The position numbers and the translations under genes are program-made. Below are positions 2,994 to 6,301 of a stretch of 64,000 bases of DNA, piece after piece. This stretch comes from Candidatus Hydrogenedentota bacterium. Its GTDB lineage: Bacteria > Hydrogenedentota > Hydrogenedentia > Hydrogenedentales > JAEUWI01. Positions within the stretch are counted from its first letter, which is position 1, and each line of letters begins with the position of its first letter. The notes beneath the pieces are model-generated. The model searched no databases. It was not told the origin of the DNA and worked only from the letters and a program-made list of their open reading frames with translations. Location of the stretch: contig JAXMOL010000033.1 of the NCBI GenBank assembly GCA_034669905.1, positions 1-64,000 on the forward strand, given 5' to 3'.

Positions 2994-4418
2994 CTATGCC
3001 GTGGGGCGTCGTGGCGCGCGGCCACCGCGTTTGAAGAGCACTTCGTCGGCGTGGAGTACTTCGGGGCGCTCTTCGAAAATAGGATCAAAGCTGGGGAAGC
3101 GTTCGACGACCTGGTGGCGTTCGTGGTAGCGGCTGATAAGGTGGAGCGTGAAGAGGAGCCGTCCAATCCGGTATTGGGTGGAGCTGCCGCAGAAAATACC
3201 AAAGCCATGGTTGCAGGCGTGGGCCAGGGAATCGGCACAGGCCTCAGGACGTCCTGCGTCGGCGTCCGACCAGGCCAGGAGTTCCATGCCTTCACCCGCG
3301 TTTTGCTCGTCGTAGGGATGTTGCTCGTCAAAGTCTTCGGTGAACTTTTCATAGAGGGACACCACCCGGTCGAACCAGAAGAAGATGGCGCGATAGCCCT
3401 CTTCCTGGAGGTCCACCATGATGCGGGCATCGTCGATGGAGTTCAGCGATTGGACGGAAAGATAATGTTCCCGGTCTTCGTTGTTGTCGGGCACCATACG
3501 CACGCGGAGCTTTTCTTCCGGCGCGCCATAGTTGAAGCTTTCAAGAATGGTGTGGACGTCGATTTTGCATTGAGAAAGTAACTTGCTCTCCACGATAAAT
3601 TCGGCGGCCAGGGGCGTGCGCTGCAGGGCGGCTTCCAGCTCGGGGTCCGGACGGAAGAGGTCGATACGCCAGTCAAACCACATGTCGTGGAAGAGGTGGG
3701 ACAGGGTGTCCCCGGGATTTTGGGCCGTACCATTCCAGCAGTCTTGCACCAGATCTTCGAAGCGCTGCTCCAGCTGGGCGCGGGTGCGGCGGAAGATGGT
3801 GTGGGAAAAGAGATAGCGCACGGCGAGCACACGGTCGACTAAGAGATCGGCGCTGGCTTCCGGGCACGCGGCATTCTTCACAAATTGGTCTACCCAGAAG
3901 GCGCGCCAATCGCGAAGTTGACGGGACAGGGTGCTTCGTGGCGGACGGCGGAGTTCGCTGAGTGACCAGCGGTCCATGGTGGCCTTGGTCAGGACGGGGG
4001 CGAATTCTTCCTGGAACTCTTCCTGATTCTGGGCGCAGAGAAGGAGGGTGTCCTGGGTGAGATCATAGAGGTAGCTCGTGCGCAGGTCACTCACCAGGAG
4101 ATAGGGCACGTTGAGGGTGGCCATCTCATCCACTACCAGCCGGGTTGTCTTGCAGAAGTCCAGGCCGCGCTCATAGAGGAGGGAGGGATTCTCCAGCATA
4201 TCGTTGGGCAGGAAAAGGGCCGCTACCGAATCGCCCGATTGGGCACGGAGCAGGAAGGGCGCGGCATGGAGTGCCTCGACCCGTTCCGATGGGGAGAAGG
4301 AAAGGGGGAATTCCCAACCAAGCATGGCCAGGCACTGTCGCGCGCTGCTGCGTAGATCGACACGGGCCGTCTGGCAATCTTCATACAATGCTTTGAGCGC
4401 TAAAACAGGGTCTCTCAT
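2994..4418 (-). CDS. Hypothetical protein resembling the N-terminal half of type IIG/Eco57I-like REase-MTases, with catalytic motifs absent
   Basis: Colinear segments LGWEF, LLVSDLRTSYLYD, LRDWRAFW, LVDRVLAVRY, LSHLF..W..DLF, RIMVD and RFPSF match the IIG scaffold; no PD..EAK, YYTP, DPACGSG or NPPY. Confidence 0.65.
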   Translation of the reverse strand: MRDPVLALKALYEDCQTARVDLRSSARQCLAMLGWEFPLSFSPSERVEALHAAPFLLRAQSGDSVAALFLPNDMLENPSLLYERGLDFCKTTRLVVDEMATLNVPYLLVSDLRTSYLYDLTQDTLLLCAQNQEEFQEEFAPVLTKATMDRWSLSELRRPPRSTLSRQLRDWRAFWVDQFVKNAACPEASADLLVDRVLAVRYLFSHTIFRRTRAQLEQRFEDLVQDCWNGTAQNPGDTLSHLFHDMWFDWRIDLFRPDPELEAALQRTPLAAEFIVESKLLSQCKIDVHTILESFNYGAPEEKLRVRMVPDNNEDREHYLSVQSLNSIDDARIMVDLQEEGYRAIFFWFDRVVSLYEKFTEDFDEQHPYDEQNAGEGMELLAWSDADAGRPEACADSLAHACNHGFGIFCGSSTQYRIGRLLFTLHLISRYHERHQVVERFPSFDPIFEERPEVLHADEVLFKRGGRAPRRPTA

Positions 4419-4981
4419 GGTATCCCTTCTCCCTTTTCCACGTGATAACCGTGGCCTTCTATGCGCCGCCAGATAATATCTTCGCGGCGTCCCAGCAGAT
4501 CAATGCCCGTGGTCAGATAGGGTTCCAGGACGGGATTGCGCTCCTGGACCCAGGTTAAAAAGGTCTCGCTGCTCACCAACTCCAGGGAAATGGGCTCGGG
4601 TAAGCTTAGCGAGGGATTCTGTCCTTTACGGGCCACCACCAGCACGTGGGCTTCATCGGCATGCATAAAGGCCAGCCGAACGGCGGGCTCCATGGCAAGC
4701 CGGCTGCGCATCACGTCCCGGTCTTCGCTTGTCTTCAAGATGATATTTCGCAACTCGGGAAAGAGCGGAAACTCCATATCGACCTGATGATAGGTCCGGT
4801 TGCCTTCCACATGGCGGAAAAGCAGCCCGATGGAGACCATGCGCTCTAACTCCCGCTGTATGGCGCGGATAGCGAGCCCGGTCGCCTGTTCCAGCTGACG
4901 CTGATAATAGGCGCGGACGGGGTCCAGCATAAAGACCTGTAACAGGGACACCCGCGCGCTGGAGGCGAAGAGTGCCGACAA
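4415..4981 (-). CDS. wHTH regulator fused to a degenerate minimal nucleotidyltransferase (MNT-like) domain; start TTG 4981, alternative 5041
   Basis: LFASSAR..YYQRQL..IQRELERM..GLL..GNRTY..PLFPELRNIILKT is typical of wHTH-MNT proteins; the GS..SDxD motif is replaced by FMHADEAH; ATGA overlap with the next gene. Confidence 0.75.
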   Translation of the reverse strand: MSALFASSARVSLLQVFMLDPVRAYYQRQLEQATGLAIRAIQRELERMVSIGLLFRHVEGNRTYHQVDMEFPLFPELRNIILKTSEDRDVMRSRLAMEPAVRLAFMHADEAHVLVVARKGQNPSLSLPEPISLELVSSETFLTWVQERNPVLEPYLTTGIDLLGRREDIIWRRIEGHGYHVEKGEGIP

Positions 4982-5000
4982 GGTCTCTTTGGAATCGTTA

Positions 5001-5188
5001 TGACTAAGTATTGTAGTCAAGGACACAAGATATGGTCTCAATTGGGTTCGTTTTTACCGGCTCTTGGTGATGCATAACGACCAAAAGCACAACATAGTAG
5101 GTATAAGACTACACGATTTTATGCAAAAACACAAGATATAGATTGTACAATGCGCAAGAGGAGTCAATAGGTGCTCTATATGTAGTAT
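5001..5188. promoter_or_regulatory. AT-rich control region with NrdR-box-like motifs and a TGACTA-N7-TAGTCA palindrome
   Basis: ACACAAGATATGGTCT 5023-5038, ACACAAGATATAGATT 5129-5144, GCTCTATATGTAGTAT 5173-5188; weaker cores at 5004 and 5090. Confidence 0.5.
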
Positions 5189-5283
5189 TTTTCAGGTTTT
5201 TGAATACCGATACATCCATCCAGATACCAATGGGGTGGGTGCAGTTGTTGGGGGTGTTGCGTTGGGGCCCGAGGTAGTTTTTG

Positions 5284-6301
5284 AACCTCGAAGAACGCAG
5301 AGAACTGAAAAGCAGACGTCTTTTGTGCTCTTTGCGTTCTTTGAGGTTGTGATTCATTTACTACCTTTAGGCCGCCACCCGCTTCGCGGGCAAATTACCA
5401 AGAACGTATGCCCAAGATGGCGATGTTTTCTGCTCCGTTCCGACCAAACTGGAACGTGTGTGCGAGGAGACTTTTTAATCTCAAAGAACACAGAGAACAC
5501 AAAGGGAGACGCTTTTTTGTGCTCTTGGCGTTCTTTGAGGTTATGTTTCATCTTCCACCTTTTGGGCCGCCACCCGCTTCGCGGGTTTGTGGAATCGCAT
5601 CTGCGCAACCTGGGGTTCGCTCGTGCCTCGCTTCACCCCAGGCTTTAGGCCGCCACCCGCTTCGCGGGCAAACTACCAAGAACGCATGCCCAGATGGCGA
5701 CGTTTTCCGCTCCGTTCCGTTCCGCCCAAACCGGAACGTGTGTGCGAGGAGACTTTTTAACCTCAAAGGACGCAGAGAACACAAAGGGAGACGCCTTTTT
5801 GTGCTCTTTGCGTTCTTTGAGGTTATGTTTCATCTTCCACCTTTTGGGCCGTCACCCGCTTCGCGGGTTTGTGGAATCGCATCTGCGCAACCTGGGGTTC
5901 GCTCGTGCCTCGCTTCACCCCAGGCTTTAGGCCGCCACCCGCTTCGCGGGCAAACTACCAAGAACGTATGCCCAAGATGGCGACGTTTTCCGCTCCGTTC
6001 CGTTCCGCCCAAACCGGAACGTGTGTGCGAAGAGACTTTTTAACCTCAAAGAACACAGAGAACACAAAGGGAGACGCCTTTTTGTGCTCTTTGCGTTCTT
6101 TGAGGTTGTGATTCATTTACCACCTTTTGGGCCGTCACCCGCTTCGCGGGCAAATTACCAAGAACGTATGCCCAAGATGGCGATGTTTTCTGCTCCGTTC
6201 CGCCCAAACTGGAACGTGAGTGCGAGGAGATTTTTTGACCTTAAAGAACGCAGAGAACTCAAGAGCAGACCTTTTTTGTGCTCTTTGTGTTCTTTGAGGT
6301 T
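5284..6301. repeat. Mosaic (BIME-like) tandem array: five ~65 bp hairpins joined by conserved linkers
   Basis: Hairpins AACCTCAAAGAAC..GTTCTTTGAGGTT start at 5284, 5477, 5759, 6042 and 6237 (periods 193/282/283/195); recurring GCCGCCACCCGCTTCGCGGG. Confidence 0.95.

Follow-up and report, generated by a model that had tools for sequence, protein, structure and literature searches.

A catalytically dead derivative of type IIG restriction-modification enzymes is a core gene of Hydrogenedentales and is linked to a dead wHTH-MNT gene

Introduction

Defence genes are normally patchy in their distribution and change fast. Among the domesticated components of restriction-modification (R-M) systems are the orphan methyltransferases Dam, CcrM and CamA as well as MutH, and dead methyltransferases serve as scaffolds in METTL14 and DNMT3L; to our knowledge, the known bacterial cases of domestication keep catalysis. 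Here we describe a pair of genes from Candidatus Hydrogenedentota, located in a 64,000-nucleotide stretch of contig JAXMOL010000033.1 (GCA_034669905.1, positions 1 to 64,000; hereafter the window), in which a 474-aa protein derived from type IIG R-M enzymes (the large protein) is encoded downstream of a protein derived from a winged helix-turn-helix (wHTH)-MNT antitoxin (the small protein). Both proteins have lost the catalytic motifs of their ancestors, their genes are linked and under selection, and the large gene has the status of a core gene in the order Hydrogenedentales.

With type IIG and IIL enzymes (Eco57I-like; PADLOC REase_MTase_IIG) the large protein shares the order of nuclease, connector and N-terminal methyltransferase half, but unlike these enzymes it lacks the PD-(D/E)xK, YYTP, DPxCGxG and NPPY motifs and the target recognition domain (TRD), and its gene is single-copy and core rather than patchy. 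The small gene has the wHTH plus MNT architecture and the stop/start overlap of PDC-M05 and HEPN-MNT (type VII) modules; unlike in these modules, the nucleotidyltransferase loop is deleted, no HEPN gene is present, the protein family carries an extra conserved C-terminal tail, a dead IIG gene lies downstream, and inheritance is vertical. As with the domesticated R-M components and dead scaffolds, a defence-derived fold would here have entered housekeeping, with a dead methyltransferase as scaffold, although unlike Dam, CcrM, CamA and MutH, which keep catalysis, the large protein is without both activities and the specificity domain. Distant members of its family also resemble beta-clamp accessory proteins (Hda, MutS and DinB; QL[S/D]LF-type) in bearing Q-x-D-[LIMF]-[FL] in an internal loop, but the Gln is lost in Hydrogenedentales. 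We found no description of the large-protein family or of the pair in the main text of open-access papers, and we rate the pair, judged by its sequence features, as belonging to neither the type IIG nor the HEPN-MNT class and as outside the known kinds of system.

Results

A truncated type IIG enzyme without catalytic motifs

The pair comprises the following features:

2994..4418, minus strand: catalytically dead type IIG derivative of 474 aa, recognized by homology, folds, motif loss and core-gene status
4415..5020, minus strand: wHTH plus dead MNT protein of ~201 aa, from a PDC-M05A-type antitoxin, a predicted autorepressor; TTG 5020 is the probable start
4415..4418, minus strand: ATGA stop/start overlap, predicted to couple translation

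The large protein has profile homology to type IIG enzymes over aa 4-436 and is a full-length homologue of their nuclease, helical connector and first methyltransferase half (hhalign 98%, E 2e-14). Comparison of its structural model with known folds returned the IIG enzymes MmeI (5HR4), DrdV (7LO5) and BpuSI (3S1S), with CamA also among the matches. The nuclease fold occupies ~aa 1-150, the helical connector ~160-290 and the first half of the methyltransferase ~291-460 (motifs X-III region); motifs IV-VIII, the second half of the Rossmann fold and the TRD are missing, the alignment stops before motif IV, and close family members are ~470-490 aa long. The only longer matches in the profile search were distant IIG proteins, no separate word-index search being aimed at fusions. 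The large protein belongs to no family in Pfam, NCBIfam or PADLOC, and PDB sequence searches with the profiles of both proteins gave chance matches only.

In the nuclease fold, hydrophobic residues stand where the alignment places the catalytic D and E-x-K, and the DPACGSG site aligns to DLQEEGY. DPxCGxG, YYTP and NPPY were each found in 0/115 close homologues and likewise in 0/37 distant ones. These results agree with an earlier note, made from the sequence of this DNA alone, which had proposed type IIG ancestry, loss of PD-(D/E)xK, YYTP and DPACGSG, and an end before NPPY and the TRD.

A core gene under selection

The large gene matches in 130/135 genomes of the phylum (83/86 of high quality) and in 130/133 Hydrogenedentales, with essentially one copy per genome. 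Of the five genomes without a match, two belong to other orders, two are incomplete and one is the 97% complete G061. Related loci lie almost entirely in records titled Ca. Hydrogenedentota or in metagenome-assembled genomes (MAGs) with looser labels. One contig carrying the operon (L056) is filed under an archaeal MAG title, probably through a binning error.

Across 13 pairs, of which 12 were computable, dN/dS of the large gene was 0.03-0.20 and that of the small gene 0.02-0.26; one of the 13 pairs shows saturation in the large gene and dS exceeds 1 in several, so most weight rests on the closest pairs (0.03-0.20). Pseudogene decay was rejected, both reading frames being unbroken and the ratios far under 1. 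The dead proteins are under selection, and the earlier suggestion that they were repurposed is supported.

Distances between large proteins and between small proteins follow those of DnaN (Mantel r 0.75 and 0.90, respectively; 24 genomes), and 7/11 supported splits of the large-gene tree are shared with the DnaN tree of the same 24 genomes; inheritance of the large gene is thus broadly vertical. In a quick tree, subject to long branches and composition bias, all 60 dead proteins fell on one side of a branch from six active IIG proteins (support 100), which fits a single old origin followed by wHTH capture in Hydrogenedentales. The family reaches Sumerlaeota-type proteins, one distant cluster (of P0318) being named Ca. 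Sumerlaeota. A profile search for distant members returned three proteins, and genomic context comes from two contigs, which encode one near-identical protein; neither contig has a wHTH gene, both have queH upstream, and one has mnmA downstream. A profile of the distant family had no match in G061, in G017 or in either genome from another order.

A dead wHTH-MNT protein and its predicted operator

The small protein matches PDC-M05A in PADLOC (E 1.6e-18), has no Pfam or NCBIfam match above cut-off, and is colinear over its full length with eight intact paralogues from the same phylum; its C-terminal domain resembles Polbeta/NTP_transf_2 clusters (atlas features, score 0.92). The structure searches were filled by matches to the wHTH domain. 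An active MNT antitoxin carries the motif GS-x10-DxD (PMC7641770). This loop is deleted relative to the eight intact paralogues and is absent in 112/112 family members, as expected from the earlier description of a wHTH-MNT protein without a GS..SDxD loop. The lack of an adjacent HEPN toxin was likewise confirmed, no HEPN gene being found in 80 loci with a profile of five paralogous HEPN proteins; none was found in the window's own genome either, in a search whose controls also came up empty.

Both minus-strand open reading frames (ORFs) are intact, at 2994-4418 (474 aa) and 4415-5041 (208 aa from the first TTG), and they overlap by 4 nt. The earlier note was right about the intact frames and the ATGA overlap but probably not about the small-gene start at 5041: homologues are mostly ~201 aa and their alignment begins at M/x-T-T, so the real start is probably TTG 5020 (or GTG 5026). 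The exact 4-nt overlap recurs in 29/68 linked loci by a crude first-start call, the remainder abutting or being called from upstream in-frame starts.

An orthologue of the small gene is present in 111/133 genomes of the order (112 matches minus one paralogue-only match), and the gene is accessory. It lies directly upstream of the large gene in 68/80 loci, which confirms the linkage, is absent in nine with enough upstream sequence to judge, and cannot be placed in three that end at a contig edge. Persistence of the large gene without wHTH in these nine loci and in the Sumerlaeota-type context does not support the obligate two-protein unit that had been suggested. Among 98 conserved positions of the large protein, none was lost in more than two of five wHTH-less groups; a conserved surface lost along with the wHTH gene, as a physical interface might be, thus finds no support in the alignment, which is not proof of its absence. 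Divergently upstream of the operon, amtB and glnK occur in 18 and 16 of the 80 loci, respectively (L043, L045, L052, L054, L062-L065 and others), a proximity that is probably inherited synteny.

Two operator-like sites lie upstream of, or over, the small-gene start:

5001..5019, no strand: predicted operator, a 19-bp palindrome (TGACTA-N7-TAGTCA) lying over the wHTH gene start; highest-scoring site of the entire genome
5106..5124, no strand: weak second operator-like site (10/16), at the position where most relatives carry a site within the TTGACA-N17-TATACT promoter

Across loci, the consensus of the 19-bp palindrome over the wHTH gene start is TGACTACA-N3-TGTAGTCA, and the upstream regions share a conserved promoter, TTGACA-N17-TATACT, whose spacer contains GACTAC; a sigma-70 scan of the window returned no promoter at the 5106..5124 position. 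A site scoring at least 12/16 was found in 50/62 wHTH-bearing loci, in 1/9 wHTH-less loci and in 5/1405 control promoters. With the window left out of training, the site at 5001-5019 scored 25.4 bits in its own genome and the next best 18.1 bits (46 matches of at least 12 bits). Because the palindrome tracks with the wHTH gene and is unique in the genome, we strongly infer that the small protein is a local autorepressor that limits how much of the large protein is made. A genome-wide regulon under its control was rejected, nothing else scoring above 18.1 bits.

A clamp-motif-like loop in the large protein

One segment of the large protein resembles a motif for binding the beta sliding clamp:

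3276..3290, minus strand: clamp-binding-motif-like segment, residues 377-381, G-M-E-L-L in the window protein, located by alignment and model

PMC11139829 gives the beta-clamp motif as Q-aliphatic-x-[L/M]-[F/L], with a Gln that raises clamp affinity but is not essential, while Glu, Ala or Gly greatly reduce affinity; the passages searched contain no mention of an R-M protein as clamp ligand. The segment consensus is [E/D/G]-[M/L/I]-D-L-F in the order and Q-x-D-[L/I/M/F]-[F/L] in distant members. Within the order L380 is invariant, F381 is found in 111/115 proteins and D379 in 109/115. Among distant members, the aligned column is Gln in 28/37 and position 3 is Asp in 89%; the strict clamp motif is matched in 10/37 and the loose motif in 25/37, versus a single strict match in the other 16,435 residues of these proteins. 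In the model, residues 377-381, part of the methyltransferase remnant, begin a helix just after the internal loop of lowest confidence. The clue is thus strong for the distant members and weak for the window protein, and the case that the large protein binds the clamp is weak to moderate.

A separate observation concerns active enzymes: six of ten active type IIG genes taken from the phylum (L183-L192), whose proteins are kin and hence not independent, encode a strict clamp-like motif (such as QLALF, QLDLL or QMGLF) in methyltransferase inserts at ~aa 520-690. Type IIG enzymes may dock on the clamp; a wider idea is that such motifs give them access to freshly replicated DNA.

NrdR-like boxes upstream of the operon

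The upstream region also holds NrdR-box-like 16-mers, which, like the operator palindrome and the clamp-motif-like loop, do not feature in the earlier note:

5023..5188, no strand: NrdR-box-like 16-mer cluster, at 5023 (score 18), 5087 (11), 5129 (19) and 5173 (18)

The box consensus follows PMC4009431, and pairs with 14-17 or 24-27 bp spacers are described in PMC12051234. In the window the spacers are 26 bp (5087-5129, with a weak partner) and 28 bp (5129-5173); the 5173 box may be a decayed operator, because two close relatives have a wHTH operator there. The own genome contains nrdR. Three NrdR-like boxes of at least 18 occur in only 1/1405 of its promoters, and the operon ranks second by paired box score. 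Tandem boxes with a 31-bp period (15-bp spacer) precede the large gene in 5/9 wHTH-less loci; such pairs occur in 6/71 loci overall versus 0.5 in shuffles, and in five other genomes they precede thyX, ftsK and the large gene, among others. NrdR-type control of the operon is, on the pattern of boxes, moderately supported and lineage-limited, and an expanded NrdR-type cell-cycle regulon possibly exists in the order.

Paired or strong boxes also precede thyX-nrdJ, nrdR, gyrB, ftsK, mutL, murC, an amidase, a LysM lytic transglycosylase and a gene with a DnaA domain. The sites in the own genome (G000) are C94:3540-3907, C5:156068-156116, C42:51434-51481, C35:73725-73802, C13:22323, C48:38582, C62:17455-17532, C7:43801-43847 and C3:128068-128114, and in other families thyX and ftsK again have such sites upstream (L170, L175, L176); boxes in this genome also precede unrelated genes. 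It holds three types of ribonucleotide reductase (RNR; C62:8264-12255, C22:102767-105058 and C94:5190-7289). An 876-aa ORF (C3:128218-130848) with MshEN and DnaA ATPase domains, separate from the canonical dnaA, has a tandem NrdR-like pair upstream, and a conserved gene without Pfam match (C32:46723-48399; L169, L170) follows such a pair in three genomes of three families. The genome's strongest box cluster (C70:1492-1661) has a primase-polymerase gene on one side and an integrase on the other, which places it in a mobile element; tandem pairs also adjoin transposase genes (IS66 and Tnp_DNA_bind types) in L174, L180, L181 and repeated sites of genome G015, and one identical 41-mer recurs at contig ends in G015.

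Discussion

We tentatively favour, at a little under even odds, the reading that the large protein is a domesticated, non-catalytic adaptor tied to replication, probably via the clamp. The fuller proposal, in which a doubly stripped R-M enzyme is a lineage-defining, clamp-docking replication or cell-cycle component in candidate phyla, belongs to an expanded NrdR-like regulon and is buffered by a dead-MNT autorepressor, is possible but doubtful. Homology, distribution and selection show that an ancestor shared by Hydrogenedentales and related lineages, including Sumerlaeota, retained the N-terminal part of a type IIG enzyme, which through loss of both active sites and the sequence-reading half became a single-copy housekeeping protein. 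It would work on newly replicated DNA, recruited to the beta sliding clamp by the Q/E-x-D-L-F loop, and the retained surfaces of the nuclease fold and helical connector would bind the protein itself, DNA, or another replication or cell-cycle factor; in DrdV, the same domains build dimers and tetramers and touch the partner's DNA (bioRxiv 10.1101/2021.01.06.425610). In Hydrogenedentales a wHTH-MNT antitoxin gene was very probably captured upstream, with subsequent loss of the HEPN toxin and the nucleotidyltransferase loop, and the captured protein very probably represses the operon via the 19-bp palindrome at promoter and start codon. In some lineages NrdR-like boxes would add to this control or take it over, linking it to the nucleotide pool.

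Several observations weigh against this adaptor reading or its parts. The motif Gln, the residue of most weight for clamp affinity, is missing in Hydrogenedentales, where D, E or G replaces it (the window protein having G-M-E-L-L), while DnaE, MutS and DinB of the same genome, named by their characteristic motifs, keep Gln motifs. Residues 378-388 are modelled as a helix that includes the invariant W383, and L-F may pack inward; moreover, some parental IIG proteins already have D-M-F at the segment position, so the D-L-F core could be structural. The window protein is acidic (net -25; family median -11), which disfavours direct DNA binding. Boxes outside the operator were found in only 10/62 wHTH-bearing loci (control 36/1405), the wHTH-less loci with box pairs may be one clade, and the genome-wide excess at 31-33 bp is modest; as two of the genome's three RNR operons (nrdAB and nrdD) are without clear boxes, the motif may belong to a regulator other than NrdR. 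Finally, G061, a member of the window's own family, lacks both genes, as do the two genomes outside the order, and deep nodes of the large-gene tree conflict with DnaN.

Of the alternatives, the one that survives best, though we consider it unlikely, is a clamp-independent housekeeping scaffold, such as a self-associating nucleoid, segregation or division factor acting through the connector dimer surface, with D-L-F serving structure only. The same core-gene evidence applies to it, the motif upstream of the operon is also found before ftsK, murC, the amidase and the lytic transglycosylase, the Gln is absent in the order, and the helical connector is the main dimer interface of DrdV (bioRxiv 2021.01.06.425610); it leaves unexplained why the motif Gln and Asp columns rank with the best conserved ones of the distant members, at only ~20-25% identity.

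A new enzyme or small-molecule sensor, with the former motif X / motif I pocket rebuilt around E293, N296, K303, R307, R316 and G341-Y-R343, is less probable again. It would draw on one feature:

3384..3548, minus strand: most conserved stretch, aa 291-345, at the former motif X / motif I site, from column conservation

Here 44% of columns are at least 90% conserved, versus ~20% elsewhere in the large protein, and invariant polar residues are included; against this, the pocket residues are not kept in distant members, and with the second half of the Rossmann fold missing an order-specific interface is equally likely.

Restriction alleviation, whereby the dead protein would join active IIG/IIL oligomers and block cutting of newly replicated, unmethylated host DNA, appears more improbable still. 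The domains that build DrdV dimers and tetramers are retained, the DrdV paper names the self/non-self problem, and six of ten active IIG proteins taken from the phylum have a strict clamp-like motif; however, the parental IIG model has matches, many of them partial, in only 22/61 genomes (E 1e-20) and in 0/7 of the window's genus, a search of the own genome with the nearest IIG had no match, and the phylum's IIG proteins do not match the family profiles. Also bearing on this alternative, the own genome holds other gamma-type methyltransferases, one of them read as PglX-like.

The earlier idea of a defence role or an anti-phage decoy or guard for phage anti-restriction proteins, which the descent of both genes from defence families and the binding of Ocr-type inhibitors to related type I methyltransferase folds (PDB titles) would favour, is very improbable and was not supported, given a near-universal, slowly evolving single-copy gene that behaves as core, no effector domain, no PADLOC match for the large protein, and 917 kb of flanks from 80 loci with no methyltransferase or HEPN signature and with amtB-glnK, cinA and metabolic genes as usual neighbours; the pair does not look like a defence system.

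A doubly dead R-M remnant kept as a core gene throughout an order, with relatives in other phyla, would show that the central machinery can take up defence scaffolds for their surfaces alone. The large gene is a candidate for a replication factor specific to its lineage, and a marker of Hydrogenedentales.

Other features of the window

Contigs from four RNA libraries (two studies) cover parts of both genes, and one contig in each spans the gene junction, while 1800-2525 and 5067-5308 are left uncovered; we do not count them as proof of expression, as contigs reveal neither the strand nor whether there is one transcript, and DNA carry-over may contribute. Upstream of the operon, at 5365-6150, lies a 282-bp tandem repeat of 2.8 copies (94% matches) with internal palindromes and no Rfam match. 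A 5S rRNA gene (Rfam RF00001) occupies positions 3-119, at the contig start.

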